This document shows positions 8,646-42,473 of a stretch of DNA of 64,000 nt, piece by piece. The stretch's first letter is position 1, and each line of letters opens with the position of its first letter. The notes under the pieces were generated by a model that worked only from the letters and a program-made list of their open reading frames with translations, did no database searches and was not told where the DNA came from. Position numbers and translations under genes: made by a program. Origin of the DNA: Pseudomonadota bacterium (GTDB taxonomy: Bacteria > Bdellovibrionota_B > Oligoflexia > Oligoflexales > CAIMVM01). The stretch spans positions 1-64,000 of the forward strand of contig JBAXBA010000007.1 of the NCBI GenBank assembly GCA_037142195.1. The letters are read 5' to 3'.

Positions 8646-9851
8646 TTACTTTTTTAGCTCGCTTTCAATTGCCTGCTTCAACTGGATGGCAGAAAATGCT
8701 CCATTGTACTTCCGTCCATTGATAAATATGGCAGGAGTTCCTGTAACCCCAGCTTGGTCGCCTTGGGCAATGTCGTCCTTAACCTTGGCTAGCACATCAT
8801 TGGAAGCTAGACACTGATCCATTTGAGCTTCCGTTAGTCCTGCTCCTTTGCCCCATGCTTTTATATTGGTAAGGGAGATATTACTTTGTTCCGCGAAGGC
8901 TTTGTCATGAAACGCCCAAAAATTACCAAACTGACCAGCGCAACGGCCCACGATGGCCGCCTGGCAGGCAAACTTATGGAGGTCTCCCTTCATGGAAGCA
9001 TTGCATGATTTATCTAGTGGATAATTTTTAAACACGAACAAAATTCTATTGCCAAACTCAGCAGTCACTTCCCGTAGGAGAGGCTCAGCCCTGCCGCAAG
9101 CCGGACATTCAAAATCAGAAAATTCCGTAACGGTTACTTTTGCTTCATCGCCGCCTTTGCGGTAGTCCTCACCTAGACCAGAAAAGGCAGACTTCGATAC
9201 TACGATCGAATTCGTCTTGGCTCCCAAGATCTGACTCTCTAATGCGGCTTCCGAGGCACTATCAACGGCAGGGCTATTTTTAGCTGAAGGCTTGAGAAAG
9301 TTGTAGCCAACCAGGGCCATGGCAACAACCATAGCAGCGGTAGTTAAGCCGTTGAATAGCACCTTAATGGTAAGTTCCGGCTTAACCTCAGACTTCTTTT
9401 TGAGAACCCAAAAGAGCTGCAAAAAAGTCAGAATATAAACCCCAATACAACTTAAACAAAAGGCCCCAACTCCAAGCCATGCAATTAAGCCTAGAACAAT
9501 CGAGGAAACGGCGCCTATAACACTTAAGCCGTAGATTCCCGCGATTTGCTCAGATTTGTTCTTACCCGAAAATAGAGCTAACAAGGCTAAAGTAGTCAGG
9601 GCTCCGAAAAATCCGATGCCTAACAAAGCAATAGGGAATCCAAAGAGTTCACTATATGCGGAACTCGATACGGCATCGCAAGAAAAGGTCTGATTGATAT
9701 TGCATATAGCACCGCTAGCGCCCGTTGCCTTAACGGCCAAATGGTTCTTCAAGGAATAGCCAGATAGTCCGATGCCTAATAGGCCGATGACCGTTGAAAA
9801 TCCCAAAAGCTCGACTTCATGACGTTGTGATTCACCTGCCTGTTGATTCAT
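8646..9851 (-). CDS. VKOR-DsbA (thioredoxin) fusion, disulfide bond formation
   Basis: C-x7-SC, membrane CLSC, then EFSDFECPAC and GVTGTP. Confidence 0.9.
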   Translation of the reverse strand: MNQQAGESQRHEVELLGFSTVIGLLGIGLSGYSLKNHLAVKATGASGAICNINQTFSCDAVSSSAYSELFGFPIALLGIGFFGALTTLALLALFSGKNKSEQIAGIYGLSVIGAVSSIVLGLIAWLGVGAFCLSCIGVYILTFLQLFWVLKKKSEVKPELTIKVLFNGLTTAAMVVAMALVGYNFLKPSAKNSPAVDSASEAALESQILGAKTNSIVVSKSAFSGLGEDYRKGGDEAKVTVTEFSDFECPACGRAEPLLREVTAEFGNRILFVFKNYPLDKSCNASMKGDLHKFACQAAIVGRCAGQFGNFWAFHDKAFAEQSNISLTNIKAWGKGAGLTEAQMDQCLASNDVLAKVKDDIAQGDQAGVTGTPAIFINGRKYNGAFSAIQLKQAIESELKK

Positions 9852-9899: not shown

Positions 9900-11765
<1,866 letters not shown>

Positions 11766-12019
11766 GTCGGAACTCCTTATAACAATTGTTGGAGTCCCGG
11801 CTGGGTGGAATGGGATAAATCCCTTTTATGAGAAGCGGTCTGGCAAAGAGAAGCATACAGAATTCGCGCGATATCTGCAAGCTGATGATCGCTTTCGGTT
11901 GGTTCAATGTGCTCAAGGACCGAGCGGATGTTAGAGATTTCCCAGCGCGGCATAAGTACTCCTTAAAAAAAGGGAATCTGCCCCGGGAAACCGGAGCAGA
12001 CGCCCAAAGGCTCGGTACG

Positions 12020-12445
12020 TCAAGCGATAGCTTCGGGGCCGTTGGCAGTAGTCGCTACTTTTGCGGCGACTTTTGGTTTTGTTGTCCTTTTGGGATTCGG
12101 CGTTTTTTGAGGACCACCCTTTGCTAAGATTTCCGCCAGACTAACATTCTCTCCCCGCGCCTTCTTCAAGCGTAGTTCATGGATCGCGTCTTTCAAAAAC
12201 CGTTCTTCATCATAAAATTGCTCCGCGATTGTCTTGATGTCAGCGCTTGGCAATTCGTTGGGATAAGAGCTGATGAGCCATTCAATCATATTGTTTCTGG
12301 TTAGCCGGACACCGCGATGTCTATCCGTGATGTGCTTCATCCATGCATCTAGTTTTGAAATAAGCTCAGGAGGCAGCGTTACACGATCCGGATGTCGAAT
12401 CTTTGACTTTTCTTGCGGGTGCTTTTCCATTAGTTGGTCGTCCAT
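12020..12445 (-). CDS. Hypothetical protein, possible ribbon-helix-helix DNA-binding protein
   Basis: RVTLPPELISKLDAW...LTRNNMIEWLI pattern; Lys-rich tail; overlaps upstream gene. Confidence 0.55.
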   Translation of the reverse strand: MDDQLMEKHPQEKSKIRHPDRVTLPPELISKLDAWMKHITDRHRGVRLTRNNMIEWLISSYPNELPSADIKTIAEQFYDEERFLKDAIHELRLKKARGENVSLAEILAKGGPQKTPNPKRTTKPKVAAKVATTANGPEAIA

Positions 12446-12825
12446 TTTCCAGTGTCCTCAATAATAAATATTCTGTGTCCTTGGATGTAACGGTCACCTT
12501 CAATTTTGTCAGGCACCCAAATAGACCTGTAGCGTGGCTCAGAAATCTTTGGATCTTTTGGCTTTTCGGTTCCGTTGGTGGTCGCTTGTCGCAATCCTTC
12601 TTTTTGTTGGTAGTCCTTGTGTCCTAGATAGCCGAATGCTGCACCGAGGCCGGCACCAATGACGGCGCCAATCGCAGTTCCTCTAGGACTGTGCTCCGTC
12701 GAGAGATTTCCCATGCTGCCGCCAGCTGCAGCTCCCATACTCGCCCCAAGGAGCATGCTATCTCTAGCGGTAGCGCAACCTACGAAGAGGAATGGAATGA
12801 TAATGAGTGATATAAATAATTTCAT
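12430..12825 (-). CDS. Glycine-zipper lipoprotein (candidate VirB7/TraV-like)
   Basis: Lipobox FVGC, Gly-zipper, C-terminal YRSIWVPDKIEGDRYIQGH resembling the TraV tail. Confidence 0.65.
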   Translation of the reverse strand: MKLFISLIIIPFLFVGCATARDSMLLGASMGAAAGGSMGNLSTEHSPRGTAIGAVIGAGLGAAFGYLGHKDYQQKEGLRQATTNGTEKPKDPKISEPRYRSIWVPDKIEGDRYIQGHRIFIIEDTGKWTTN

Positions 12826-12919
12826 ATAAGGTCCTTAAAGTGGAATGATGAATGGAGTCGTGTTTGGAATGGGCTCCGTATAGGAGCCTATCGGGAATTG
12901 AGTCGATTTCGCAGGGGCG

Positions 12920-13786
12920 TTAAAGCGCGATTCTCGCTTGGCTTTTTCGTGCATCCAACAGATGCTGGGTCGTCAACGTAGATGAGCTGTTGACCGGCGG
13001 TTGACTACCCTCCCGATGCATTAAAAGATGCAGTGTATCCCGAATGGATTTTCCTGATTCAGGGCCAGTACAAAACTTTGCAGACCAACCATGCTTAGTG
13101 AATTGATCCGCGGATACGAAATTGTGGATATCGCCGCGATAGGAAACCAACTTCGTGATCTGCTTTTGGATCGATCGCGCTTGCGATTCGAGTTCTACAA
13201 GCCAAAGGACCCTAAAAACTGTTTGTTCTTCGCTGTAGTAATCACCAACTGTTTGATAAAATGCCGAGGCTTTCTGGTTCAGCTCTACTTCTACACCCAC
13301 AGGAAAAATCTTTTCATTGCTAGGAATTCCCCAGTAACCATCGGGGCGGTGTATTTCTGGACTCGGCACCCATGATGGCAGTGATTCTGTCGCGTATCGA
13401 CGCAGTTGCTGTTCTGAAAACAATTGAACGTTTTCGGGACGATCAATCAGCCACTCGCCGAGATGGAATGCGCTGACAAGTCCGTCGTGACGGGTATGTT
13501 CCGAGCCAAAGCCTTCTTCGCGCAAGGCAGGAAGAAATGATCGGATAGCCTCGAAACCTTTTTTTGAAAGGGTCCAATGAAAATTTTGTGCCCTTTCGTC
13601 CGATACGCCTTTAATAATTCCTGCTCGCTCTAACCGATTCAGCCGATGATAGGCTACCACGAGCGAAGTCTTAGGGAAGAACTTCAAGTGCAGAGCCCGT
13701 GTCGTGACTACTTTCCAACGCCAGAGAAAACCAAGCAAAGGAATATCCCGCTCACTTGATAGTTTCACTTTAATCTTTTGCTTCAT
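12920..13786 (-). CDS. Replication-relaxation (Replic_Relax-like) protein, candidate relaxase
   Basis: N-terminal wHTH (ERD...RLNRLE), H...E, RPDG...VEVE...K PD-(D/E)xK-like core; GAGGTG RBS. Confidence 0.7.
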   Translation of the reverse strand: MKQKIKVKLSSERDIPLLGFLWRWKVVTTRALHLKFFPKTSLVVAYHRLNRLERAGIIKGVSDERAQNFHWTLSKKGFEAIRSFLPALREEGFGSEHTRHDGLVSAFHLGEWLIDRPENVQLFSEQQLRRYATESLPSWVPSPEIHRPDGYWGIPSNEKIFPVGVEVELNQKASAFYQTVGDYYSEEQTVFRVLWLVELESQARSIQKQITKLVSYRGDIHNFVSADQFTKHGWSAKFCTGPESGKSIRDTLHLLMHREGSQPPVNSSSTLTTQHLLDARKSQARIAL

Positions 13787-13796
13787 TTCGGACACC

Positions 13797-15266
13797 TCAC
13801 GCCATTTCAAAAGGAGACGATTCTGGAATTGAATCCTCTTGGTGCATATCAGTGGATTCTTCGCTATGAGTTTTAGAAAGGGAGTCGACGGATTTTCTCA
13901 AGGGTGCAAGCAGTGCCTCAGAGGTTTCGATCGTTAGGAAAGGTGTTTGAACTTCAGTCATTTCAATTCCCGATTTCCAAAGGGCACGCCCTGGAATGAC
14001 TGGAAGATCGGTGGCTCTGCCATTTCCCAGAACTGTCATGCTTGAGGCATCGTTTGACATAGGAAAACAAAGCACTCCAGTTAAGTTGGCCTTGATCTGC
14101 GGATCAAGGGCTCGTACATCAGGCCTCTGTGTTGCAATTATTAGATGAACCCCAACTGCGCGTCCTTGCCTTGCAACTTGGCTCATAATGCGTCTAGCTT
14201 TTTGAATTTCCGTTGCTGATGCATGGCTACCCGCAAGAAACATTTCGGTCGCCTCATCAATGACAAGGAGCATCCTATTTAGAGACTTAGGCTTCATTTC
14301 CTGGGCGTTGGTCCCAGTCTTTTTTGTTGCAAGTGCATCGATGTCTTTGACCTTGTTCTCTTTCAGAATACCCATTCGGTCGTTCATCATTTTTTCAACT
14401 CGCTTAAGATCATTGATTGCCGAGGCAACACTAGGGACGACTTTGACTCTTTCCAAGTTTTCAAAAAGCTGGAACTCCAGACCACCTTTAAGATCGATCA
14501 GAATAAAATCCATCTTTTCATTCTTGAGATATAGCGTTGTAATCATCTGTCTTAGAAAGGTTGATTTACCGCCACCGGTTTGACCAGCGACTAATAAGTG
14601 TGGCGTATCGCGAAGGTTTCCTTTGATATCCTTTGATCTTGTTTTCCCGATTCGAAATTGAATACCTCTAAGGCCGTTAATACCAGCCCATTCGACCGAG
14701 GAAGGCATAGGAAACTTAGAGTAGATGATATCAAAGCAACCTTGCCCTCGATCTTCTTTGATTTCGTCGATATACACTTGAAGCCCCGTCTCAAGAGCTG
14801 GCTTTGCGGCTTCAAAGTCTTTCTTTGGGAAATTGGCGCTAGTGATACGTAACTTGCGCGTATTCACATCGATTGGGAAGTCTCTAAGAATCCGTGGTGT
14901 TCTACCAAGTCGATTCTTAAGACCCGATGTCAGCAAAGCTGTTTCGAGCTTTCGCTCAAATTGATTGAATAGTGTGGCTCGATATGTCGCCCAAGCGACA
15001 AATCCAAACGAGATCGCACCAATCGAATAGATGGAAAAGAGAATGGTTCCTCGTGGGTAGAAGAATTCTATTCCCATCCGATGGAACATAAAGCTGTCCC
15101 AGCGAAACAGAATAAGCAGCGCCGCCAATAGCCCAACAAACCCGCATGCTGCCCACGGAATGGAATTGCTACGAAAACCAAACCACAGTTCGCGAACTGG
15201 CCGCAGCATCAGTCGAGCATTGGTTAGTGCGGCTTGGAGCCTGTCAGGTTGAAACTTGCTAGACAT
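13797..15266 (-). CDS. FtsK/SpoIIIE-domain membrane ATPase (TcpA-like coupling protein candidate)
   Basis: Two N-terminal TM segments; PHLLVAGQTGGGKST, IDLKGG, VIDE, GRAVGVHLIIATQRP. Confidence 0.88.
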   Translation of the reverse strand: MSSKFQPDRLQAALTNARLMLRPVRELWFGFRSNSIPWAACGFVGLLAALLILFRWDSFMFHRMGIEFFYPRGTILFSIYSIGAISFGFVAWATYRATLFNQFERKLETALLTSGLKNRLGRTPRILRDFPIDVNTRKLRITSANFPKKDFEAAKPALETGLQVYIDEIKEDRGQGCFDIIYSKFPMPSSVEWAGINGLRGIQFRIGKTRSKDIKGNLRDTPHLLVAGQTGGGKSTFLRQMITTLYLKNEKMDFILIDLKGGLEFQLFENLERVKVVPSVASAINDLKRVEKMMNDRMGILKENKVKDIDALATKKTGTNAQEMKPKSLNRMLLVIDEATEMFLAGSHASATEIQKARRIMSQVARQGRAVGVHLIIATQRPDVRALDPQIKANLTGVLCFPMSNDASSMTVLGNGRATDLPVIPGRALWKSGIEMTEVQTPFLTIETSEALLAPLRKSVDSLSKTHSEESTDMHQEDSIPESSPFEMA

Positions 15267-16150
15267 CAGCCGCCTTCCTTTCCGAACAGCACATAGAACG
15301 ATGTTCCCTCGGGGACTTCGATAACGGGTTTTTCGTTTTTCAGGGACGACATCATCTCGCGGGATTGATCCAATGCAGCACGATTTGTGCCATTTAACAT
15401 CGCGTTTCGCACTGTGGACTTGTTCACCACTGCTGGACCCTGAACTTCCTTTTCCTGAAGACCTTCAGACAATCCGGAAATGAAGTTGAGACCAATGCTT
15501 CCCCCAAGGCGTAAGGCATACTGACCTGCCTTTGATCCCTTTAAGCCTGGAGTTTTATCGCTGCTGTCAGCGGCGTCTGCCTGAATTGCAGCCATTGATC
15601 CATCTTTAAAGACGACCTTGTCGAATCGGATGAAAAGCCTTTCCTCAGATGATTGTCCTGTACCGAGCAATACTGCTTCTGGCTCGATAAGTTCTTCGCC
15701 ATTAACGACAAGGCCATCAGTAAGAATTGCTTTGACAGGCCCGTTGGAAGCGCCAATTGCTAAGGAGGCCATCGCCAAAGCTCCCGGAGTGATAGAAATG
15801 TCTCGCGGGCGTTTTAAAAGCTTGGGGCCATTTAGCTTCAATGGCATTCCTTGTGTCCTCAACTTAGGCAGTTGATCCACGTCCTGAGAACCAGAAAGGG
15901 CGTCATAAATAGGTAGATTCAAACCGCTACTATCATCAGAAGGAGTAAAGTCATTTGGCAAAGCTACCGCTTTTGTAGCCTCTGATGACTCCTCAGGAGG
16001 TCCTCCGACAATAACAGCCACGGCAACAATCCCTAGTACAATGGCAACGATGAGACCGAACTTTCTGGTGCGCGCGAATTCCATGAGACGATCTGACCGA
16101 CTTTGCAGCCGGTCCTTTAGAATTCTTGGAGTGTCAGTGTTTTTTTCCAC
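15266..16150 (-). CDS. TrbI/VirB10-like (TraM/TraB-like) T4SS protein
   Basis: Single TM, linker, C-terminal beta domain ERLFIRFDK...DG...PGLKG...VIEVPEGT; GTG start with GGAGG RBS. Confidence 0.75.
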   Translation of the reverse strand: MEKNTDTPRILKDRLQSRSDRLMEFARTRKFGLIVAIVLGIVAVAVIVGGPPEESSEATKAVALPNDFTPSDDSSGLNLPIYDALSGSQDVDQLPKLRTQGMPLKLNGPKLLKRPRDISITPGALAMASLAIGASNGPVKAILTDGLVVNGEELIEPEAVLLGTGQSSEERLFIRFDKVVFKDGSMAAIQADAADSSDKTPGLKGSKAGQYALRLGGSIGLNFISGLSEGLQEKEVQGPAVVNKSTVRNAMLNGTNRAALDQSREMMSSLKNEKPVIEVPEGTSFYVLFGKEGG

Positions 16151-16526
16151 GTGCGGTTCCTCCCTGTGGTGCTTCGATGGCATCGCGCACAACGACGATG
16201 CTTTGGCCCCCCGATTCTGTTGCCCGGAGATCAAAGGTGAATCGACGCCCAAGCATGTAGACAAAAAGATTTGATCTGGCATTTGTTTTTAGAGGTGAAA
16301 TCGCCAGGTCATTTTCGACGTACTCAATTCCAAAAGATCCGGTGTTGCCTAAAATTACTTTGGTCGCCTTGGTCGGGAGGCTTAAGACAGTGCCTCTAAT
16401 CAGAACGGGAATCGCGGCAACCTGAGTATCTTTCAGATAAACCGTTTTCACTTCCTGACCGTAGGCGTTACAACTAGCTATCAAAACAACAAACAGCACG
16501 TTAGTCCCTAGGTTTGCAATTTTCAT
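16134..16526 (-). CDS. TrbG/VirB9-like T4SS protein (short)
   Basis: Signal peptide; VILGN...LAISP...SNLFVY..GRRFTFDL resembles the VirB9 N-domain; operon position. Confidence 0.65.
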   Translation of the reverse strand: MKIANLGTNVLFVVLIASCNAYGQEVKTVYLKDTQVAAIPVLIRGTVLSLPTKATKVILGNTGSFGIEYVENDLAISPLKTNARSNLFVYMLGRRFTFDLRATESGGQSIVVVRDAIEAPQGGTARGKKH

Positions 16527-17062
16527 TTGCCAATTTCCTTTCTATCGACGTTGTCAACTTTGCTAAGGAGGAGGCCGTAGGGGTTATCTTCGGTGCGTGT
16601 GGTGCGAGACACTAAAACCTCAAGTATGATGGGAAATGCTGATCTAATCTTATCGATGGATACTAGTCGATCAGCATCTACTCGAATGGCATCACCCTTG
16701 ATGGTTACGGAGTTAACGACCAGTTTTTGACCCATTCCCTTCTTTCTAAGGTCTTCCATTTCGATAGCGCGGGCTTTTAACTGTGGTAACGATAGATAGG
16801 CTGATTTTGCATCAATGCCTGTGCCAAAACGCTGAGGAAGCACTTCCTCGACAAAACCTTTAATCTCAACATCTGTGACATTGACCGACACCTTTTTGGC
16901 AGATTTGGAAATGCATCCTCGTTCGATGACAAGGGGATCTTTAAGAGCAAGTTTGGCGACTATGGTCGCAGTCGTGACTAACGAAATCGACAGCGCGCCA
17001 ATTACAAACTTTAAGGTTACGTTTTGGGCTGCGATATCGGCCCATGCAGTTGGAAATCTCAT
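16523..17062 (-). CDS. VirB8/TraE-like T4SS protein
   Basis: Single N-terminal TM and C-terminal RTEDNPYGL motif. Confidence 0.75.
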   Translation of the reverse strand: MRFPTAWADIAAQNVTLKFVIGALSISLVTTATIVAKLALKDPLVIERGCISKSAKKVSVNVTDVEIKGFVEEVLPQRFGTGIDAKSAYLSLPQLKARAIEMEDLRKKGMGQKLVVNSVTIKGDAIRVDADRLVSIDKIRSAFPIILEVLVSRTTRTEDNPYGLLLSKVDNVDRKEIGK

Positions 17063-17063
17063 A

Positions 17064-18050
17064 TTACTTTTCCTTCCAGGAAATTTTTAAACCAGAGTCG
17101 GTATTCTTGTGCTTGCGATTCTTTAAAGGAGAGCGCACGACACCGCTGCTGTAGTTCTTTGCTTCTTCCCGTTTTGCCTCAAAATGCGCCCGCGCCCGAG
17201 CGATAGGCATGGTTGTGATGCGGCGCGCGCCAGTAATTAAAGTCTGAGCTGGAGCCGTCGCTAAAGCGGAAAGGCTTGCTGGACCAGCAGCGCTCGCAAT
17301 AAGAGCGGTACCCGCGCCGCCACTTAAAGTTCCTGCGAGTCCGGCGACACCCTTATTGATAAGAGCACGTACTACCAATGGTGTGAAAATAACTGACAGT
17401 GACAGCATGATAGTATAGGTGAGTATTGTGATGAAATTAGTTTGCTCGTTTACGTTTTCAAAATTGTGGATTGCCGAACTCCACAGGAGTGTGCCGAGGA
17501 CAGACCATACGATTTTCCAGCCGGAAATCTCAAAAATGGAACGAAATAGGGCGGATGTAGCCGCCGCAGTTTGGGGCAAAATGAAGAACGCAATCAATAG
17601 TGGCGAAAAGACATAGAGGACCACCCATGCGTAGGCAATGGCAGCATCGAAAAAATAGACCGTGACATGAAGGATATAGAAGGCCAGGTACGAAATGACG
17701 AAAATAAATGAATCCCCAATTGAGGCCCAGGACCACGAAAGAGATTTAAGAGCTGCACCGGCTTTGCCCAAGACTAGTTTGTAGGAATTGAGATCTCCGA
17801 TGCGATTTGCAAGAGCATCAGCAACATCCGCTACGGCGTTGGCAATTTCTGGATAGCTGATGAGCAGTACCGCTGCAATGAGAGTCCTACCCACCAATTG
17901 TGAGAATCCAGGCATCCCTCCAAGGGGAATCTTGAAATACTCGATCACAACTCCGATCAGCAAAAACACAACTGCCAGAGAGAAGAAAATCGATACAAAA
18001 ATACTGTGAATATTTTGTGCCTCTTGAGTGACCCATGCGTAGTCCATCAT
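17064..18050 (-). CDS. VirB6/TrbL-like polytopic membrane protein
   Basis: Multiple TM helices, SPLLIAFFILP, Gly/Ala-rich tail; operon position. Confidence 0.72.
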   Translation of the reverse strand: MMDYAWVTQEAQNIHSIFVSIFFSLAVVFLLIGVVIEYFKIPLGGMPGFSQLVGRTLIAAVLLISYPEIANAVADVADALANRIGDLNSYKLVLGKAGAALKSLSWSWASIGDSFIFVISYLAFYILHVTVYFFDAAIAYAWVVLYVFSPLLIAFFILPQTAAATSALFRSIFEISGWKIVWSVLGTLLWSSAIHNFENVNEQTNFITILTYTIMLSLSVIFTPLVVRALINKGVAGLAGTLSGGAGTALIASAAGPASLSALATAPAQTLITGARRITTMPIARARAHFEAKREEAKNYSSGVVRSPLKNRKHKNTDSGLKISWKEK

Positions 18051-18052
18051 AG

Positions 18053-18757
18053 TTAGAGCCTCGGAAATTTGAATTCGGGTCGCATAGAGGTCATCGCTGC
18101 GTTGAGTTTGTCCGATGTGCTGCGAACCTGATCACTATAGACTTTGTCTTTCCGGTTTTGAATTGCCATGGATTGCGCTTGAAGCTTAAGGCCGGTTGCT
18201 TGAGCACGAAGAGACTGATTCATCACATGAAGCATGATGCCTAAAGATTGAGCTGTGATCTTTTGCGCTCCCTTTGGAGATGCAACGTTGCTATTGCGCT
18301 TGATTTTCTCGCCAATTTGATCGATTTCTCGCGCGTAACCGTAGATCGAATTGTTGAGAGAAATCGCCTCTGCGGCAGTCTGATCGGCGTCTTGTTGAAC
18401 TTTAAGTTCTGACGAGTCCACTGAGTTTCCATAGACATTCTTCACATACCTAAGGGCATCTTGGGCGCGAAGCAGCTCGCGGTACAAACCAGGGTCAAGG
18501 GCAGCACCTACGGAATTAACGAGACCAAGGGCGTCGTTTAAACCACGGTTTACATCCTGCATAAGGCTAAGTGTGTCCTGTCCCGTAGAAAGAAGTTGCC
18601 TCAATTGTAGAAGTTGCTGAATGGCATTCGCAAGGATCTGAGTTAGCACAACGACATCGCCGCCAAAAACATCAGCTCGGGATGTTTTTGGCGCTATCAT
18701 CAGAGAGCAGGCAACGATCCCTGATATTACCCTACTTTTGACGTTCCTAGATTTCAT
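18053..18757 (-). CDS. VirB5/TrbJ-like secreted helical protein
   Basis: Signal peptide, Gln-rich helical protein between VirB4 and VirB6 homologues. Confidence 0.6.
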   Translation of the reverse strand: MKSRNVKSRVISGIVACSLMIAPKTSRADVFGGDVVVLTQILANAIQQLLQLRQLLSTGQDTLSLMQDVNRGLNDALGLVNSVGAALDPGLYRELLRAQDALRYVKNVYGNSVDSSELKVQQDADQTAAEAISLNNSIYGYAREIDQIGEKIKRNSNVASPKGAQKITAQSLGIMLHVMNQSLRAQATGLKLQAQSMAIQNRKDKVYSDQVRSTSDKLNAAMTSMRPEFKFPRL

Positions 18758-18768
18758 AGTTTTCCCCT

Positions 18769-21174
18769 TTACCCGGCAGAGGAGACTCCGCGCGGGTATA
18801 ATTCAGAAAGCTCTTTGAGAATTTCCTGATGAGACTTTTGTGGGTGAATCTCCCGGTAAGCATCGATTGCCGCTAGATCGCGGGGATCGGTGGTTGCAAT
18901 CCATAGTTCTAGCGGCGCTGCTTCAATAACAGCAAGTGTTCGATTAGCACCCGCAATCAGAAAGGCTTCTGAAAAGACGCCCTTTTTCTGGTGCAGCGAA
19001 CTAACCAGCGCCACTTCGTTGTCGTTAAGTGCTAGAACCTCTTTGAGCCTGGTCTTGTCACCTTGAGGCTGGAGCAGTACCCACTTGACAGCACAGTTAG
19101 GCATAATGGCGCTCGCAATCTTTGACCTGGCAAAGTCGTCAATATCTTGAGAGATTGCGATAGCAGAGGCGTAGTATTTGCGAAAGGTACGGAATACTTC
19201 TTCAATGAAAACGAGTCCTGCATCACTTTTTAGGAGCTTCCAGCATTCATCAAAAACTAGAAACTTCATCGTCTTTCTATCGCGCTGGACCTCACGCCAA
19301 ACTAGGTCTGTGATGATGAATAGACAAATGGCTTGAAGATCAGGATAAGATTCCAATCCCTTTAGGTCGAAGGCTACAACATGAGAGTCAAGCTTGACGT
19401 TTGTAGGGCGATCTACAAACCTGCCGTATGGAGTATCGCCACACCAGGAATTTAGAATACGACCATAGCGGACTATCGACGCATCGGGGTGGGCAAGCAA
19501 TAAGTCCCTCAGTTCACTTAGACGCGGAGATACGCTCTTTTCATAGAGGCGTTGAATAGCCTCTTCGATTTCTGAGCGTTCAAGACGCGGGAGCCGCTCT
19601 TGTTCGTCTTCTTTGGTCATCAGTTCAATAAGCCCCAAGAGAAATTTTATCTTTTGACTTGAAGGCACCGTTTCTCCAGGCGCGAGGTCGAAAGGGTTAA
19701 TGGCGATACCCTCAGTCAGCGACAAGTCCACATATTGGCCCGATAGGTTCTCGCAGAGCTTTTTGTAGGAACCGCCGATGTCTACAAAAAAGACACGCGG
19801 ATTTTCCTTCAGCATCTGAAGCAAAAGCACGTTAGTGAGGAATGACTTGCCTGCGCCCGATGCGCCGCTGACAAGTTGATTGGCGTTGGTTAGCCCAGGA
19901 TCGAACGGATCTATTGAGAGTAGATTACCCATTCGCGTTCTAAGTAGTATACGCGGCTCTCGATGCCCTCGCCACGGACCATAAAGAGGCACTAAGTCAC
20001 AAAGATTTGATGTTTTCATGCGCTTTGATCGATCATTGACTCGTGAGTTAGGCAAAGAAAATTGCGTGAACAAGTCAAAAGCAGCAAGACTTTCTTCGAG
20101 CCCTTCGGCTCTTCCCATTTCTCTCATGACAGAAAGCGTTTGCGCGACTTGCATTCGTAAGTGCTCCTCGTCATGGCTACGAAGTAAAACATTCATGCTG
20201 CCGTGGAATACCTTTTCACCCTGGGCGATCATTTGTTCCAAAAGGCGTTCAAGATCCGTAAACTTCGCCGTGCTCTCAATGTCCGAGACACCAGACTTTT
20301 TGCCGAAAGCCATGGAATAGGCGATTCGCCTCTGGGTTTGAAGGCTTTCTAGCTCCTTCGTTTGATCGGGGACATGAATAGTAAAAAAAAGTCTGGAGTC
20401 GAATGGCATCTCTCGAAGTACCGACGCCATGGACGAATAGGATTGATCTGGCAAAAGCTTCAGTGAAATCACACGATGGTGCATCCCGCCAATGGCAAAT
20501 CCTCGATCTGAAATGCCAACGTCGGAAAATAGGAGAGACGTACGTACCGACTCCGGATCAAAACCTTTTAGCTCAATAGGTCTATTTGGATTCCACTGCT
20601 GGTAAATCAGATTCATCATCGCTTCAACAGCGATAATCTTAGGCTCCATACCTAAGGCCATAAGCTGCGTTGTCATCTCCTCTTTTAGTCGTTCCGCATC
20701 CGCAAGTTCGCGATGAAACGCCGCTTCATTCATCTCGTTGAAACTTGCTTGTCTTGTGAATATCTTAGGCTTACGGAGACGACTGCCTGACCAAGCGCGC
20801 CGGGCTAAGAGAAACAAGGAATGATGGGGCAAACTACCCTCGCCATCCAGTTGCTCGAGTTGCTTGCATCGTTGTTCTGTCATTGAAGCAGCTAACGATT
20901 GTTTGTTCGCAACAGACAACTTGCCGTGATTCTCAATAATAAAACTATTCCCACCTTTGATATCCTGTATAAATTGAAGATCCAGACCGCTTGGGAGGCT
21001 GTTTAGAAACTGTTTTGTGCGCTCGGAAAAATCGTTGATCATTTCGTCCGATGAACACGAGACGTCTAAGGGTGCAAGCTCAAATCCGAACCCTATGGAA
21101 CCATCAGCAAAAACTACATTTCCATCTTCAATTCCCCAAATTTGGAGATAGTCAGCGAGTGTCTCACTCATCAT
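18769..21174 (-). CDS. virB4: VirB4/TraC conjugative ATPase
   Basis: GASGAGKS Walker A, VDIGGSY, INPFD, VFDECW, FRKY...ISQ; start at the ATGA overlap with the upstream gene. Confidence 0.92.
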   Translation of the reverse strand: MMSETLADYLQIWGIEDGNVVFADGSIGFGFELAPLDVSCSSDEMINDFSERTKQFLNSLPSGLDLQFIQDIKGGNSFIIENHGKLSVANKQSLAASMTEQRCKQLEQLDGEGSLPHHSLFLLARRAWSGSRLRKPKIFTRQASFNEMNEAAFHRELADAERLKEEMTTQLMALGMEPKIIAVEAMMNLIYQQWNPNRPIELKGFDPESVRTSLLFSDVGISDRGFAIGGMHHRVISLKLLPDQSYSSMASVLREMPFDSRLFFTIHVPDQTKELESLQTQRRIAYSMAFGKKSGVSDIESTAKFTDLERLLEQMIAQGEKVFHGSMNVLLRSHDEEHLRMQVAQTLSVMREMGRAEGLEESLAAFDLFTQFSLPNSRVNDRSKRMKTSNLCDLVPLYGPWRGHREPRILLRTRMGNLLSIDPFDPGLTNANQLVSGASGAGKSFLTNVLLLQMLKENPRVFFVDIGGSYKKLCENLSGQYVDLSLTEGIAINPFDLAPGETVPSSQKIKFLLGLIELMTKEDEQERLPRLERSEIEEAIQRLYEKSVSPRLSELRDLLLAHPDASIVRYGRILNSWCGDTPYGRFVDRPTNVKLDSHVVAFDLKGLESYPDLQAICLFIITDLVWREVQRDRKTMKFLVFDECWKLLKSDAGLVFIEEVFRTFRKYYASAIAISQDIDDFARSKIASAIMPNCAVKWVLLQPQGDKTRLKEVLALNDNEVALVSSLHQKKGVFSEAFLIAGANRTLAVIEAAPLELWIATTDPRDLAAIDAYREIHPQKSHQEILKELSELYPRGVSSAG

Positions 21175-21494
21175 CGGGCACCTCTTGCATTTTTGTTTGG
21201 TGGCAGTGGCCACTCGGAGGGTTCGTTGAACGCAAAGAGTTGCTTGCGACGGAGCTGGAAGCGCACCAAGTGAATCAAATAATTGTCTGGTTTGCCGCGC
21301 TTTCCGATTCTTAAAGTCACAGCTAGAAAGATAGTTGGCAGCCAAACTAAGACCATCTTCATGTCCGTCCGACCAAACATGAAGTTCAGAAGGGAAAGTA
21401 AAAAGAAGATTGCGAGCAAGTCAGGAATCTCATAGCCAGCAATCTGCAGTTTTTTGTCGAGGCAGCGGCTAATTTGGGCTGTTTTAAGTGCCAT
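21171..21494 (-). CDS. VirB3/TraL-like membrane protein
   Basis: Small 2-TM protein with KRGKPDNYL, directly upstream of virB4; AAGGAG RBS. Confidence 0.72.
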   Translation of the reverse strand: MALKTAQISRCLDKKLQIAGYEIPDLLAIFFLLSLLNFMFGRTDMKMVLVWLPTIFLAVTLRIGKRGKPDNYLIHLVRFQLRRKQLFAFNEPSEWPLPPNKNARGAR

Positions 21495-21518
21495 GGAACT
21501 CCTTTTGACAGATGATAA

Positions 21519-21555
21519 TCGGCGAGTCCCCTGCCTTGAGGCTGGGGCCCGCCGA
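21519..21555 (-). other. GC-rich stem-loop after the pilin gene
   Basis: TCGGCGAGTCCCCTGCC-TTGA-GGCTGGGGCCCGCCGA imperfect dyad with no U-tract on the coding strand. Confidence 0.55.
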
Positions 21556-21565
21556 AAACTTTCGG

Positions 21566-21853
21566 CTAGTTGATCATGCCGCGTATGAACGCGATGATGC
21601 TGGGTGCGCCAAAACCGATTACGGCGCCCATCATGGCAAGAAAGAGATGCGACCTTGCATTGGCGTTGCCAGTAAAGAAGGAAAATGCGGCAAATACTAA
21701 CCCTAGAATTCCGGCTAGCGGCAGAATGACGTTGATTAGTTTATTCTGTACTGCCATCAAGCTAGACTCTACGCTACCCAAAGCAAGCGATGAGGCGAAA
21801 ACCAAACAAACGGTCAAAAACGACAAACCAAATCGTTTACTTGCAATAGACAT
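21566..21853 (-). CDS. TrbC/VirB2 family pilin
   Basis: 95 aa, signal peptide plus two hydrophobic helices ending GFGAPSII; GGAGG RBS; upstream of VirB3/VirB4. Confidence 0.82.
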   Translation of the reverse strand: MSIASKRFGLSFLTVCLVFASSLALGSVESSLMAVQNKLINVILPLAGILGLVFAAFSFFTGNANARSHLFLAMMGAVIGFGAPSIIAFIRGMIN

Positions 21854-21931
21854 TTATAGACCTCCACAAAGGCGGAAACATTGGCGGCGTGCTACTCAGA
21901 GGTAGATTCGGAGCCGTGATTTTGTGGAACA

Positions 21932-22276
21932 CTACTCAGCCGGAAAAAGGCTCATGAACACCCGACGGTCAATAAGATTAAATCGAATCTCAAGATGCGT
22001 CTTTAAATCCATGCGAAGACGGGCAGCCCCTACCGGATTCTGAAACCGAACTCCCTCTTCGTCTCGGAGAATTTTGCTAAAGAGGGTGTAGTTTGGATTT
22101 TCTCCAAAGTTTCTATTAAGGAAGTATGTCACCCCCGGAAACATGTGCAGCCTGAGACTATAGAATGACTCATCTCCCTTGCGAATGGCTAGTCCAGCAT
22201 TTTTTGGAAGCAGTAGCTTTCCAGCTTCAAAGCGGCCAACTAGTAGTTCGTGTTTCAGTTCATTCACGTCATTCAT
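21932..22276 (-). CDS. Hypothetical beta-rich protein (weak DUF736-like resemblance)
   Basis: 114-aa ORF with AAGGAG RBS in the tra operon. Confidence 0.6.
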   Translation of the reverse strand: MNDVNELKHELLVGRFEAGKLLLPKNAGLAIRKGDESFYSLRLHMFPGVTYFLNRNFGENPNYTLFSKILRDEEGVRFQNPVGAARLRMDLKTHLEIRFNLIDRRVFMSLFPAE

Positions 22277-22288
22277 CTTGGGAGCTCC

Positions 22289-22531
22289 TTAACCATTTAA
22301 TTTAAGTTCGTCAGATACGTGATCGAACAGTTCTTGATCTCTTTCTCTATTCGCCAGATCATTCCCATTGGCAAACGCTTCGCGACGTTGTTCGGCACGG
22401 TGTAGTTCACGGCAATTGACCCGTATTCTTTCAATTAGACTCCGGCAGTTTCCTAACACTTCAACTGGAAACTGGTCCAAAGCTAACAACAAAGGTTTAA
22501 TTGACATACTGATGCGGCCACTCAAGGCCAC
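22289..22531 (-). CDS. Hypothetical protein
   Basis: Short co-oriented ORF ending 12 nt before the next gene; start uncertain (ATG near 22507). Confidence 0.4.
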   Translation of the reverse strand: MALSGRISMSIKPLLLALDQFPVEVLGNCRSLIERIRVNCRELHRAEQRREAFANGNDLANRERDQELFDHVSDELKLNG

Positions 22532-22855
22532 GTCAATTTTGCCGATCTGTGCTCGTCTCGACGGCTGCTGATAATCGCGGACAGAGCTCGGTCTATACGC
22601 CTTAAAATGCCTTTGCTTCGGTGACTATTCGTGGGCATTTCACCACGAAGTTTGATCAAATCGGCGCGCAATTCTTCGAGCATGTGTGTCACTTACTGAC
22701 TCCTTCTTGAAGCTAAAACCCAACGTGTCGTGCCCTTTGAACACGCGAATAGTGCTCGCGCTGATACTTAGCCGATTGTGCGTGATCCCACCAGACCGCT
22801 TCGTGTGATCTCCAGAGCGAGCGCAGAGCACGGCGAACGGATTTGAGTTTGATTT

Positions 22856-23035
22856 TCATGGGCCGGTCCTCCTGATACACGCCTTGTTTCGCAGGCTGGA
22901 TTGCTGCCGACGGGAGGTGGGCATATTAAGCTGTGGATCAAACTCAGGGCAGTAATTGCAGTTCACGCAATAGCAGTGGGTCTTTAGTACTTCGTAGGCC
23001 GCCTCCCAACATCGGGGGCATCTGTAAAATGGCAT
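22856..23035 (-). CDS. Small Cys-rich zinc-ribbon protein, first gene of the tra operon (not in ORF track)
   Basis: MPFYRCPRCWEAAYEVLKTHCYCVNCNYCPEF..., 59 aa, AGGAGG RBS. Confidence 0.7.
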   Translation of the reverse strand: MPFYRCPRCWEAAYEVLKTHCYCVNCNYCPEFDPQLNMPTSRRQQSSLRNKACIRRTGP

Positions 23036-23089
23036 GTTCTTAACCTCCTACTTGTGAGTCTCAGAGTCGATTCTCTACATGTAGGTAGT

Positions 23090-23105
23090 TGCAAGAGCGT
23101 GCCAA
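23090..23105 (-). promoter_or_regulatory. Sigma54-like -24/-12 promoter facing the tra operon (spacer 1 nt shorter than canonical)
   Basis: TTGGCACG-CTC-TTGCA on the minus strand, 55 nt upstream of the first ATG. Confidence 0.5.
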
Positions 23106-23167
23106 CGCATAGGATTAGCGCAAATGATAGGAAGTATCTGTATTAATTTGGAATTTTTCTTGGATTA

Positions 23168-23217
23168 GAGTCTCAATGTGATACTGAGTCTCAGAGAGTA
23201 TCTATCTTGGAGTCTCA
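23168..23217. promoter_or_regulatory. Three GAGTCTCA boxes (candidate activator binding sites)
   Basis: Exact GAGTCTCA at 23168, 23186 and 23210; fourth copy at 23056; dyad GTCTCA-N3-TGATAC. Confidence 0.6.
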
Positions 23218-23703
23218 GATTTCTTGGTATTTTTCTCCAAACTCGATAGGCTTGATTTCTCCTCGCACATAAAGTGGATGTCTGGGGTGACCGTGTTTTG
23301 TAATTCCTAAGCAGTAAGGTGAGTCCAATAATTTTAATACTGCTTTATTTCTTTCGTTGAGTGCTCCGTTTGTTCCCCAAGCAATCAACACTAGTTTACA
23401 ACGGGACTGGAGTTTTATAATCCAGTCATTATTTTCTGGCCCGATAGGGTCATTATTTGGGGCTGAATTAAGTTTACTTGGATCTTTTGATCGATATGCA
23501 AATAGGTTAGCCATGATTAAGCCGCCATACCCCCAGCTCTTTGAAAAATTGATACATCGACATATAGTTCGGTCGTCTTCTACTTCATCTGCGGTCGAGG
23601 GGTTTAGGCCGACGAACATTGCCAAAGGCAAGGCCTCATCCCAAACACGGTAGAGAGCGTATCTATAGACCCTGTCGGCCGAAAAATCAGCTGATTTTTT
23701 CAT
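23215..23703 (-). CDS. DUF1643 family protein
   Basis: YRYALYRVW, FVGLNPSTAD, NLFAYRS, AWG and GHPRHPLY motifs. Confidence 0.88.
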   Translation of the reverse strand: MKKSADFSADRVYRYALYRVWDEALPLAMFVGLNPSTADEVEDDRTICRCINFSKSWGYGGLIMANLFAYRSKDPSKLNSAPNNDPIGPENNDWIIKLQSRCKLVLIAWGTNGALNERNKAVLKLLDSPYCLGITKHGHPRHPLYVRGEIKPIEFGEKYQEI

Positions 23704-23899
23704 AAATATATGCCAATTGAAGTGACAACTAACATTTTATACTCTTAAGCTTCTTCTAATATGGCAAGCTTAGTTCAAAAAGTCTTCATCTATCTTTTAT
23801 GGCGGATTCTTTCAATAGGGTTATATAGCGCCTTAGGCATTCCAAACTGTATTTAGCTATCTCTCTCCCAGTCGACTATGCAAAAAAGGATCTCTTTTT

Positions 23900-25771
23900 C
23901 CCGACTTCGACGGTGAAATGAACAAAAATATATAATATCAGCATGTTAAGTTGTTGCTGGGCACTACATTCTAGATTTTGTAAGGTGTGCTGCTTCTTTC
24001 TAGGTCAAATGCTGCATATATTTCGAGCTGACTTTTGTCGGTTGCGGAGGGAATGACATAGCGATTCTGGGTTGGCTTGTCGATGATCTTGCTAGCTTCT
24101 ACTCTGCGGAGTCGATGCCTCATTTCGTCAATACTGATTACTAGTCCCTTTTTCTTGAGTCTATGAACACTGTGCTTAGCCACAGCATAGGTGAGGTAGC
24201 AAAGACTTATATGAGAGCGAATTCTACGGGGACTCCAGTGATATATGGGTCTCATTTTTAGACTATGTTTGTTGACGCGGAATGCTTCCTCAATTTGCCA
24301 AAGCCCTCGGTAGCGCTCAAGGATCTTTGCAGAATGATCTTCTGAAATATTAGTGATAACACCGTGAAGGCCATCCCAGTTTGCATCATTTTCTACTTTA
24401 TTGAAGTCGATTTCAGCGGATCCGGACTTAATTTTTAAGTACTTTTTTGTTCCGCTGTTGGAAATGACATCCCCGATTTTGATGTCTTCTTTTCCAGGAC
24501 TAACTTTCTTTAATAGACGATCCACCAGTCTTTGACGGTCTGAAGCGTCTTTTTTGGCCCGACTGCTGCTGTAGCTTACAACGAGGGTCTACCTTCATTT
24601 TCAAAATCTCGAACCAAATGAAATTCATTATTTACACAAGTTGCCTTAAACTCAGAGATTAAGATTTCATCCTTTTTCGCTTTTGAAAAGCTCTTGAGCT
24701 TGGCCGCCACAACATACTTGATTTCATGTCTTTCAAGCTCTTCTAAGTTATCCGGTGTAAACATCCCTCGATCAGCAACCAGAGCAATTTGAGAGACTTT
24801 AAAGCTTTCTTTCAACTCTTTAACCACGTGAAGAAGGGTGTGTCCTTCAAAAGTATTGCCTGGAAACAACTGATAGGAAATAGGAAGGCCGTCATGCGTT
24901 GTCACTGGAGCCTACATGACTTGCGACTGATTAAACTTACAGTCCGTGCTAAATTCAAAGTTTCGAAGCTCATCTCGTTCAATGCTTTCGAAGTACAGAG
25001 TAGTGACATCAAAAAACAAAACATCAACTTCTTGGTCAATTATCGCCAAAGTCTTCTGAGCTACCGTTTGTTTGATCTTGCCTTCAATATCTGAAAGTAG
25101 ATCCATCATTCGATAGATCTTTTTTACTGGGATCTTTATATCAAACTCTTCATTCATAAATCGCGAAGTTGCTCTTTTGCTATCGGGCTCGGCAATGCGA
25201 GCAAGTACAGAGGACTGTAAAATATCATTCCACTCTCGGTCTTTTGATGTGCCCTGAACCAATTTATCAAAGCCTAAGTCTTCATAGACCTTGCCGAAAA
25301 TGTCAGAAATCCCTTCATTAAAGCGCTTTTCTTCTTTTAAATTAAATGGATAGACCATTTCATCCCCTAGAGGTAGTTGCCTCTTGCTTGAAGAGTGGAA
25401 TTCAGCAGATTCTAAAATAGGTAGAACAGGCTTAGCGGCATTTTTATTTCTACAATCGCCACTTCGCCTATCCTTTTAAACTCAGCAACCTTTTTTTCCG
25501 AGTAAGGAGTGCCTATATTTCTAACGATTTTCTGACGAACGCTTTTGCCTTCACGAACAGATTAAACAATCTGCACCTGCCAACGCTTTTCATCTTTTTT
25601 CTTTGCTAATACATAAATGCATACATGCATACAAGCTATCGCAGGCCTAAAACAAAGGTCACCCGGGGCAGGACAAAACGCCTGTTTTTGAAAATAAATT
25701 TTTACTCTAAAAATTACAGAAAGTTGCCCAGTCTAAATCACTCAAAAGTTGGGTTGGCTGTCGAAGTCAGG
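23900..25771 (-). mobile_element. IS1634-family insertion sequence, degenerate
   Basis: Terminal IRs CCCGACTTCGACGG / CTGTCGAAGTCAGG enclosing transposase fragments. Confidence 0.85.
23971..25625 (-). pseudogene. IS1634 transposase broken by stops and frameshifts
   Basis: Fragments with FFDVTTLYFE, VADRGM and YRGLWQIEEAFR..K...RPIYHW in different ORFs. Confidence 0.88.
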
Positions 25772-25941
25772 AAAATCACCGGAAGATATTAAAGAAGTTT
25801 GTGATGCTTATGCAGATATGGGCGGAATCAAGACAGAGCTTTCTGGGGTAAATTGTCCTTAGGGATTTGCGATTTTTTTAGATCAAAAACAAAGCCCTCT
25901 GATTAAGAGGGCCTTGCTTTGAAATAAGTTTTAAAATAAAT

Positions 25942-26391: not shown

Positions 26392-26629
26392 GGCAAACTC
26401 CAAAAATTTTCCCCGGCCCTTACTTGGCCAAGCCAAGGCCAAAACCTTGAGCAAAGTGACCAGGCACTATATCTCTAGGGAAAGGTTATTACAAGTGCCA
26501 AAGGGAGACGAAATTAGAGCCCGCATAGAATCACTATTTGGTTTTTATATCAGTTGGTTGCAGCCAATTTTTTTCCTCTAGCGTACATGTTTTTAAGCAT
26601 TCGTGGCAGGATATCGAGCGCTAAATTAT

Positions 26630-42451: not shown

Positions 42452-42473
42452 CATACTATTTGAAAATCTAGTC

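Follow-up and report, generated by a model that had tools for sequence, protein, structure and literature searches.

A putative integrative and conjugative element of a Bdellovibrionota lineage that combines a TcpA-like ATPase and a MOB_C-like nuclease with a minimal two-membrane type IV secretion system

The DNA analysed here, referred to as the window, is a stretch of 64,000 nucleotides (positions 1 to 64,000 of contig JBAXBA010000007.1, GenBank assembly GCA_037142195.1) and represents contig C7 of a 4.02-Mb, 203-contig genome, 94.3% complete, from a freshwater bacterium of the lineage Bdellovibrionota_B. Inserted at the 3′ end of a tRNA-Ala gene is an integrative conjugative element (ICE) that spans approximately positions 10060–42764 (32.7 kb). 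A large serine recombinase, its attachment (att) sites, a protein resembling MOB_C relaxases, a predicted coupling ATPase as well as a type IV secretion system (T4SS) all lie inside this one bounded insert.

The minus strand carries all the sizeable open reading frames (ORFs) between positions 12020 and 23035, which touch or overlap one another. They form one operon, the transfer module of the larger ICE, comprising ~11 kb and 16 ORFs, all 16 of which are open. Transcribed first are three small conserved ORFs (21932–23035, minus strand) encoding a 59-residue CxxC..CxxC protein, an 80-residue protein and a 114-residue protein, followed by VirB2, a VirB3/TraL-like protein and VirB4. In the middle are a 234-residue secreted protein, a 328-residue polytopic protein, a 179-residue bitopic protein, a 130-residue VirB9-like protein and VirB10, and at the end a 489-residue FtsK/SpoIIIE ATPase, a 288-residue protein with a winged helix-turn-helix (wHTH) and a nuclease domain, a Gly-zipper lipoprotein and a 141-residue protein. 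The operon is closed by a terminator-like hairpin with an 11-bp stem and a T run (11976–12001, minus strand). The initial annotation, made from the sequence alone, had described a largely overlapping, co-oriented operon at this place, and this stands; its interval holds for the transfer module, whereas the whole element is far larger, with att sites that enclose 32.7 kb. Its labels for VirB2, VirB4, the VirB9-like protein, VirB10, the FtsK ATPase, the wHTH–nuclease protein and the lipoprotein are firm, whereas those for VirB5, VirB6, VirB8 and a ribbon–helix–helix (RHH) protein are positional. Also borne out is the absence that it had noted between the att sites: no VirD4, VirB11, VirB1, HUH or MOB_T family was found in the 40 ORFs scanned (21, and a second batch of 19 chosen among the 33 ORFs of at least 90 residues in the cargo region).

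The secretion system includes a VirB4/TraC-type ATPase (18769–21174, minus strand), 801 residues long when read from an ATG that overlaps the stop codon of the VirB3-like gene; the longest ORF extends to 21345. It matches Pfam P-loop_TraG (E 2.3e-40), TraC_F_IV and the NCBIfam model TIGR02746 (E 5e-84). The VirB10/TrbI homologue (15266–16282, minus strand) has one transmembrane (TM) segment and matches Pfam TrbI at 52.9 bits against a cut-off of 35; its true start is probably internal, at Met34 or Met67. The VirB2/TrbC-type pilin (21566–21853, minus strand) matches TrbC weakly in the window protein (20.8 bits); the family was matched in 10/10 homologues scanned, four of them above the cut-off.

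The VirB9-like protein (16134–16526, minus strand) consists of 130 residues that correspond to the VirB9 N-terminal domain, with no C-terminal domain. By sequence it is only weakly recognizable (CagX, 20.4 bits). Its AlphaFold model (pLDDT 86.6, from an alignment of 18 sequences) retrieves VirB9 N-terminal-domain homologues as all ten top Foldseek matches, led by the N-terminal domain of TrwF (E 1.2e-7, TM-score 0.72) and followed by DotH, Xanthomonas VirB9, CagX and F TraK. The short form is the norm of the family, with lengths of 121–162 residues in 17 aligned homologues. Failure of the VirB9 and VirB10 assignments had been named beforehand as a way in which the hybrid character of the system could be refuted; both assignments hold.

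The remaining channel components are assigned more loosely. A two-TM protein (21171–21494, minus strand) is VirB3/TraL-like, with DUF3487, TIGR03750 and TraL all below their cut-offs. The 179-residue bitopic protein (16523–17062, minus strand), with one N-terminal TM segment, is VirB8-like by topology and position; every atlas neighbour that it has at 0.88 belongs to the VirB8/TraE/DotI type, and Pfam VirB8 was matched in none of 18 homologues. The 328-residue polytopic membrane protein (17064–18050, minus strand) is VirB6-like by topology and position, TrbL being matched weakly in 1 of 17 homologues, and the 234-residue secreted helical protein (18053–18757, minus strand) is VirB5-like by position only.

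Directly downstream of VirB10 is the gene of the predicted coupling ATPase (13797–15266, minus strand), a 489-residue protein with two N-terminal TM segments (hydrophobic at residues 34–61 and 73–93 by hydropathy) and an FtsK/SpoIIIE motor (PF01580, 90.1 bits against a cut-off of 24, E 1.9e-25). Searched against all PDB sequences, residues 122–441 match best to TcpA of plasmid pCW3 (6o1z/6o1x/6o1w; E 3.3e-30, 108.6 bits), with FtsK at E 1.2e-16 and EssC/EccC next, and no TrwB/VirD4 chain among the matches at E ≤ 0.01. By blastp, TcpA of pCPF4969 aligns at 125 bits over 419 residues, TM region included, a B. velezensis FtsK-like protein at 118 bits, the host FtsK at 87 bits over 227 residues and TrwB at 35 bits. 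In a search of 72,556 plasmids, alignments close to full length were to TcpA genes in tcp loci of C. perfringens and Enterocloster (26–28% identity over 82–94%), and the TcpA gene of pCPF4969 adjoins tcpM in its tcp locus. As far as such comparisons reach, the ATPase is much more like TcpA of pCW3 than like FtsK, and has barely any likeness to VirD4/TrwB. In a 26-row tree of coupling ATPases its family groups with FtsK and TcpA, apart from four VirD4-type proteins (85/67); 862 relatives were found at E ≤ 1e-10 among 8000 candidates scored.

No VirD4-type coupling protein was found elsewhere in the genome, at its 94.3% completeness. PF02534 and PF10412 had no match in the whole 4.02-Mb assembly, while both were matched in control genomes, and the only other FtsK-domain gene is a chromosomal FtsK of 782 residues. 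The ATPase gene is linked to VirB4 and to a putative relaxase in a system without VirD4, and its product would act as the coupling protein. A complex prediction for the soluble ATPase with the nuclease scored 0.00 and gave no verdict.

The next gene encodes the wHTH and PD-(D/E)xK nuclease of 288 residues (12920–13786, minus strand), a putative relaxase and distant member of the MOB_C superfamily. Its 95 homologues are all unnamed or annotated as 'hypothetical', and the named hosts are Bdellovibrio, Bacteriovoracia and allies. Across 48 aligned homologues H100, D101, D149, G150, Y151, E166 and E168 are invariant, and K172 is conserved in at least 90%. The predicted structure (pLDDT 91.2) shows a MarR-like winged helix followed by an α/β domain; an N-terminal winged helix is a MOB_C trait. 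Foldseek returns restriction enzymes weakly, with BstEII at E 9.7e-3 and then FokI, PaqCI and EcoT38I, and when the PDB was searched with a profile, wHTH proteins alone came up, none better than E 0.03.

The relationship to MOB_C emerges from the family. PF13814 (Replic_Relax) was matched in 13/48 members at E ≤ 0.01; two of nine rescanned members score 28.0 and 28.3 bits (cut-off 25.3) with profile coverage 1–154, and the pAM373 protein that MOB-suite types as MOB_C itself reaches only 27.1 bits. Aligned by hhalign to 31 enterococcal TraX-like MOB_C proteins (drawn from 116 homologues of the pAM373 protein), the 48 family members give a probability of 88.5% and E 2.7e-6 over 190 columns that cover both domains. 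This alignment pairs E125 with E132, D149 with D155, E166xE168 with E173xE175 and K172 with K179; D155, E173, E175 and K179 are invariant. The CloDF13 record yielded no ORF with a Pfam match, and MobC of CloDF13 is not among the references. PF13814 is the CONJscan MobC model and represents a described relaxase class, MOB_C, according to Table 1 of PMC5357655 and a passage of PMC12857230; MOB_C proteins are there related to PD-(D/E)xK enzymes, and for TraX, which has an N-terminal wHTH, no covalent DNA intermediate was detected (PMC12857230). The proposal of a Replic_Relax nuclease is in this respect supported, with one correction: because Replic_Relax is the Pfam model of MOB_C, the element is not to be read as relaxase-less.

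The motor and the nuclease together bear on what would be moved. Double-stranded DNA (dsDNA) transfer, with the motor pumping dsDNA as Streptomyces TraB does, the enzyme cutting both strands or marking the site, and the T4SS serving mainly as junction or channel, would suit an ATPase on the FtsK/TcpA/TraB side of its superfamily and a PD-(D/E)xK fold, which is that of double-strand cutters. To our knowledge, however, VirB4/VirB2 pilus machines have only single-stranded DNA (ssDNA) or protein substrates, and a search for repeats did not turn up clt-like ones of the kind that a TraB-type motor would use. Published statements point both ways: in a passage of PMC12857230, MOB_C TraX lacks a detected covalent DNA intermediate and the TcpA structure led its authors to suggest dsDNA, whereas a part of PMC3548315 treats Tn916 and ICEBs1-type elements, which use TcpA, as ssDNA systems. 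We regard dsDNA transfer as unlikely; the substrate would be ssDNA, and the nuclease would nick rather than cleave both strands.

Two genes follow that of the nuclease. The Gly-zipper lipoprotein (12430–12825, minus strand; Gly-zipper_YMGG, 31.5 bits) is conserved 3′ of the nuclease gene, and an outer-membrane anchor or a role in exclusion are guesses at its function. The 141-residue protein (12020–12445, minus strand), conserved in position, is a lead as a possible RHH relaxosome accessory factor; no Pfam match was found for the window copy or the 15 homologues scanned, and the nearest named atlas cluster is MetJ at 0.82, a level that often arises by chance.

The boundaries of the ICE are given by exact att repeats and by comparison with a genome of the same genus, G001. 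The target is tRNA-Ala(GGC) (9984–10059, plus strand; ARAGORN), whose last 10 nucleotides are the attL copy of a direct repeat. attL (10050–10081) consists of this repeat, ACCTCCACCA, at 10050–10059, 8 nucleotides and an inverted-repeat arm at 10068–10081; attR (42743–42774) consists of the other arm at 42743–42756, 8 nucleotides and ACCTCCACCA at 42765–42774. ACCTCCACCA occurs exactly twice in the 64 kb, at these two places (chance expectation 0.03), and the 14-nucleotide arm likewise occurs exactly twice, inverted (chance expectation 0.17). Joining the sites would yield a symmetric attP of ~54 bp; a symmetric attP of such size is typical of large serine recombinases. In G001 the left flank is 92% identical and homology stops at 10062; the flank that follows tRNA-Ala there is found again in the window just past 42774. 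Neither G001 nor G002, both of the same genus, has the element. An element end near 23.1 kb, suggested by a drop in GC content, was rejected given the att repeats at 42.7 kb.

Spanning the left junction is the large serine recombinase (9900–11765, minus strand; conserved residues ~17–533), with the domains Resolvase (106.6 bits), Recombinase (51.6 bits) and Zn_ribbon_recom (29.5 bits), all above their cut-offs. The tail of its ORF crosses attL into the tRNA in antisense, and blastp alignments to homologues end near residue 530. No joints that would point to excision were seen in the contigs of four sequencing runs; one freshwater DNA sequencing run contains the window stretch (share 0.78), and no RNA run was listed.

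Immediately 5′ of the tRNA-Ala site is a host gene (8646–9851) for a VKOR–thioredoxin/DsbA fusion protein, 92% identical in G001. A cyanobacterial origin of the DNA, to which this fusion and the XisF-like recombinase had pointed, was rejected when homologues turned out to come from Bdellovibrionota. A sequence of ~120–300 nucleotides found after tRNA-Ala is present in the window as two copies (42765–42968 and 45805–46113) and in the G001 locus (L082) as three (144–364, 7660–8065 and 12458–12769). These repeats bracket short islands, among them a DUF2442/DUF4160 pair and Fic proteins, and the arrangement suggests that islands have built up in tandem at a single tRNA hotspot.

Beyond the transfer module is the ICE cargo (23215–42742), which comprises DUF1643, insertion sequence (IS) fragments, a DksA-like gene, an NtrC-type regulator with kinase, a type I restriction-modification (R-M) system with AAA_13, and DUF7380/DUF4209. 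No second recombinase, relaxase or T4SS ATPase was found in this 19.6-kb region (19 of 33 ORFs of at least 90 residues scanned). In the R-M locus (32070–38905; HsdR, HsdS and HsdM) a 358-residue AAA_13 gene lies between hsdS and hsdM, a position that we take to recall PrrC/RloC-type anticodon nucleases. A 35-nucleotide direct repeat, 97% identical (23896–23930 and 26626–26660, 2730 nucleotides apart), flanks transposase fragments and the DksA-like gene; its copies are possibly the termini of an insertion sequence that lies disrupted within the ICE.

IS1634/IS4-type transposase fragments at 23971–25358, inside the element, could be taken as signs of a decaying remnant that has lost transfer, as could a VirB9 that is truncated relative to canonical forms and a recombinase ORF that continues into the tRNA because a stop codon of its own is gone. 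However, none of the module's 16 frames is interrupted, the att repeats are exact, the short VirB9 is what the 17 homologues also have, and the read-through into the tRNA recurs in relatives. We therefore hold decay to be extremely improbable, and the ICE would be active.

The T4SS falls in none of the mating-pair formation (MPF) classes F, T, G, B and FA/FATA. VirB4 scores below every NCBIfam class cut-off, the best being TraC-F TIGR02746 (282.7 bits against 567). For MPF_T, TIGR00929 reaches 189 bits against a cut-off of 643, and no VirB11-type ATPase occurs in the ORFs scanned; for MPF_G, TIGR03744 (PFL_4706) reaches 70.3 bits against 520.6; and for MPF_B, TIGR03783 reaches 84.5 bits against 261.55. 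The CD1110 model of MPF_FA/MPF_FATA gives 157 bits against 325, and VirB9 and VirB10 are present here. Families typical of MPF_F (TraU, TraW, TraN, TraH and TraF) were not found in the 40 ORFs, and the MPF_C model plasmid, Nostoc pCC7120alpha, matched neither the window VirB4 nor the AAA_10 control.

Among plasmids, VirB4 comes closest to that of pYRE from Myxococcus stipitatus (25.8% identity, 266 bits) and to those of Thermus (219 bits), then to IncC-type TraC. In a 22-row VirB4 tree, built without MPF_G, MPF_I and MPF_C references, ten Bdellovibrionota sequences form a 100/100 clade joined to pYRE and Thermus at 86/83; the deeper nodes are without resolution. The clade lies outside MPF_F (100/99) and MPF_T (100/100), apart from the MPF_B reference (Hymenobacter TraG) and separate from the four monoderm references. 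The system could have fallen in a described MPF class, an outcome named beforehand as refuting its novelty; the class cut-offs, and the tree with its MPF_F, MPF_T, MPF_B and monoderm references, both place it outside. The plasmids pYRE (L083) and T. thermophilus pAA3-7c (L084) are typed 'non-mobilizable' by MOB-suite, although each has genes for a VirD4-type protein, VirB4 and a pilin; present typing tools seem to cover the pYRE/Thermus-type T4SS lineage poorly.

Related loci are common in the phylum. A scan of one genome per species, with 14 closer nuclease sequences as query, gave 105 pattern matches, of which 67 were confirmed. Bdellovibrionota-type names (Bdellovibrio-, Bacteriovorac-, Oligoflex-, Silvanigrell- and Pseudobacteriovorax) are borne by 53 of the 67, and the other 14 carry generic labels ('Proteobacteria' or 'Deltaproteobacteria') or are probable mis-binnings (Polynucleobacter twice, Elusimicrobiota and Verrucomicrobiota). 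Where enough upstream DNA is available, the ATPase gene is adjacent to that of the nuclease in 51/56 loci, VirB10 is present in 34/44 and VirB4 in 21/26, and the genes stay in the same order, at 30–60% identity, in different orders of the phylum. The nuclease was found at E ≤ 1e-10 in 24 of 131 genomes of the phylum and in neither same-genus genome. Bdellovibrionota bacterium FG-1 (JBBCAW01), which is not labelled as a metagenome-assembled genome, holds two complete clusters on different contigs (L011 and L024); it may be culturable and a possible experimental host.

Where the recombinase gene is next in these loci, it abuts a tRNA or tmRNA gene (Leu, Leu, Val, Pro, Leu, Ala and tmRNA). The recombinase family is of the serine type, yet it targets tRNA/tmRNA 3′ ends, and as a rule its ORF runs on across the junction and enters the tRNA. 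A GTTCG(A) motif stands a similar short distance inside the element at 7/7 tRNA junctions, those of the window and of L016, L021, L006, L012, L059 and L032. At these junctions (10035–10081 and 42743–42794 in the window) the motif, carried by the element-side arm, mirrors the tRNA T-loop, and the conserved T-loop may serve as one recombinase half-site. For six related elements, direct repeats that would mark the far end were sought within the retrieved loci, and none was found.

Some loci (L016, L021 and L025) contain the ATPase, nuclease and recombinase without a T4SS. L016, next to a tRNA, has just four genes, for the ATPase, the nuclease, a small protein and the recombinase; host genes adjoin them, and the 8.5 kb upstream hold no T4SS gene. 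This is by analogy the layout of an integrative mobilisable element (IME). A second, more distant group of nuclease relatives (E 1e-11 to 1e-20, frames mostly of 250–300 residues) is multi-copy in some Bdellovibrionota, with five matches each in G005 and G020 and others in G039, G040 and further genomes, and may represent another family of small mobilisable elements. In B. velezensis (L096; NZ_CP079100.1, 5728–10749) an FtsK/SpoIIIE gene lies directly 5′ of a Replic_Relax gene (44.3 bits), with a large serine recombinase 1.4 kb off; this is the same trio as in the T4SS-less Bdellovibrionota elements, in a monoderm. The pairing of an FtsK-like coupling protein with MOB_C is therefore not confined to Bdellovibrionota.

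Such loci invite the reading that two separate things lie side by side in the window: a T4SS for effector delivery, predatory killing or DNA release or uptake, and an independent mobilisable cassette of ATPase, nuclease and recombinase. The cassette does occur alone in L016, L021 and L025, a similar FtsK-like, Replic_Relax and serine recombinase trio exists in the B. velezensis record, and Bdellovibrionota include predators. Yet T4SS and cassette share one co-oriented, overlapping operon with a single terminator, their order is conserved across orders of the phylum at 30–60% identity, and the T4SS has no other coupling protein and always lies inside a tRNA-integrated element. These points make the two-part reading very unlikely.

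Taken together, the locus is probably an ICE whose TcpA-like ATPase and MOB_C-type nuclease feed a minimal two-membrane T4SS. The large serine recombinase would excise the element by attL × attR recombination at the tRNA-Ala 3′ end. The wHTH and PD-(D/E)xK protein, a divergent MOB_C-type relaxase, would then bind the circular element and cut it at the origin of transfer (oriT). The membrane-anchored, presumably hexameric TcpA-like ATPase, replacing VirD4, would take the DNA and drive it into the T4SS, from which export would proceed through a pilus-forming assembly of VirB2, the VirB3-like protein, VirB4, the VirB6-like and VirB8-like proteins, the VirB9 N-terminal domain and VirB10, without VirB11 or VirB1. 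As far as sequence analysis reaches, this supports the compact hybrid proposed in the initial annotation, in which outer-membrane T4SS parts are combined with an FtsK/TcpA-type ATPase and a Replic_Relax nuclease. Its suggestion of an undescribed ICE family in this lineage is probably right.

Several observations weigh against this interpretation. Excision, nicking and transfer are all predicted from sequence. The separation of the ATPase from VirD4 is only moderate (85/67), and the 26-row tree, which has a basal polytomy, does not tell a sister of TcpA from a sister of FtsK. Because the VirB9-like protein is without the C-terminal domain from which solved systems build their outer layer, the outer-membrane channel stays unexplained. 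For the nuclease, whole-model fold searches are dominated by the wHTH, restriction enzymes appearing only at E ~0.01; the window protein scores 19.8 bits with PF13814, below the 25.3 cut-off; single-sequence hhalign comparisons are weak (4.8% for the pAM373 protein; 38% for the B. velezensis protein, over the wHTH only); and tblastn found no match in the 72,556 plasmids. The search for an oriT gave none, and relatives do not share the hairpins and repeats of the intergenic stretches.

Two candidates for oriT were considered and rejected, as neither is conserved in relatives: a hairpin with GAnTGGAGTCG-type repeats (12850–12905) and a cluster of GAGTCTCA (23056–23217). The latter comprises four near-palindromes 5′ of the operon, 4 of the 6 window copies lying inside 160 nucleotides, and was not seen in five related loci; it is a candidate operator or relaxase binding site.

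It is unusual for MOB_C to be combined with a coupling protein of the TcpA type and with a T4SS of a diderm. In the published statements available, TcpA homologues are confined to Firmicutes (a passage of PMC3548315), VirD4 is replaced by TcpA solely in a sub-class of MPF_FA (a passage of PMC4027160) and the type IV coupling proteins of all Gram-negative T4SSs are placed in the VirD4 family (a passage of PMC12857230, from 2025). Within streptococcal IMEs, according to part of PMC5357655, TcpA never occurs with MobC, which goes with VirD4 and a serine integrase. A full-text literature search, covering papers other than subscription-only ones, found neither a TcpA-type coupling protein described in a diderm T4SS nor a described conjugation system or conjugative element of Bdellovibrionota.

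If the interpretation is true, the element would be a natural counter-example to VirD4-only Gram-negative T4SSs and to Firmicutes-only TcpA, as these appear in the same passages (PMC12857230, PMC3548315 and PMC4027160). An FtsK-branch motor could then dock onto a VirB4/VirB10 machine with an outer-membrane core, which bears on how channels recognize coupling proteins and on whether TcpA-type and MOB_C systems move ssDNA without a covalent pilot or dsDNA. With 16 ORFs in ~11 kb, the module is small enough to invite reconstitution and structural study. We put forward more tentatively, as a possibility that we would not yet call probable, that these elements constitute an unclassified, Bdellovibrionota-wide conjugation class. 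In this class a translocase of the FtsK/TcpA branch would have displaced VirD4 at a pilus-bearing double-membrane T4SS without VirB11 and without the VirB9 C-terminal domain, a Bacillota-type coupling and MOB_C-like module having been grafted onto a Myxococcota/Thermus-like T4SS. Were this so, DNA may enter the channel without a covalent pilot protein, or even as dsDNA.

The closest parallels to the coupling ATPase are the TcpA systems of pCW3, Tn916/ICEBs1 and streptococcal IMEs. Shared with them are the two N-terminal TM segments, the FtsK/SpoIIIE motor and a near-full-length alignment, as well as a gene located directly 5′ of that of a non-HUH relaxase and the presence of VirB4 without VirD4. 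Identity is only ~27%, however, the host here is diderm, and the partner T4SS has a pilin, VirB9 and VirB10; moreover, TcpA partners a MOB_T or MOB_M relaxase, whereas the ATPase here partners a MOB_C-like protein.

The nuclease resembles the MOB_C proteins TraX of pAD1 and MobC of CloDF13 in its N-terminal wHTH, its PD-(D/E)xK core with aligned E..D..ExE..K residues and its location beside a coupling gene, but it is very distant, without BLAST-level similarity to any plasmid. The MOB_C protein of pAM373 pairs with a VirD4-type coupling protein, as do, according to part of PMC5357655, those of streptococcal class-8 IMEs. That work describes class 8 as compact, with the genes for a coupling protein, a MOB_C relaxase and a serine integrase in this order, as in the T4SS-less Bdellovibrionota elements, although the coupling protein is VirD4-type and the hosts are monoderm.

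For the T4SS, the plasmid systems of M. stipitatus pYRE and T. thermophilus have the nearest VirB4 and the same order of pilin, small protein, VirB4 and downstream genes. VirB4 identity is only ~25%, and the Thermus plasmid encodes a VirB11-type ATPase and a transglycosylase in addition. Both plasmids differ from the window in encoding VirD4-type coupling proteins, so that the TcpA-like gene looks like a replacement within this T4SS lineage. A further parallel, drawn from published description and not from sequence comparison, is ICEth1/TdtA of Thermus thermophilus (transjugation), which in a passage of PMC5365140 is likewise a tRNA-integrated element of a diderm host, with DNA export by an FtsK/HerA-family ATPase and nucleases.

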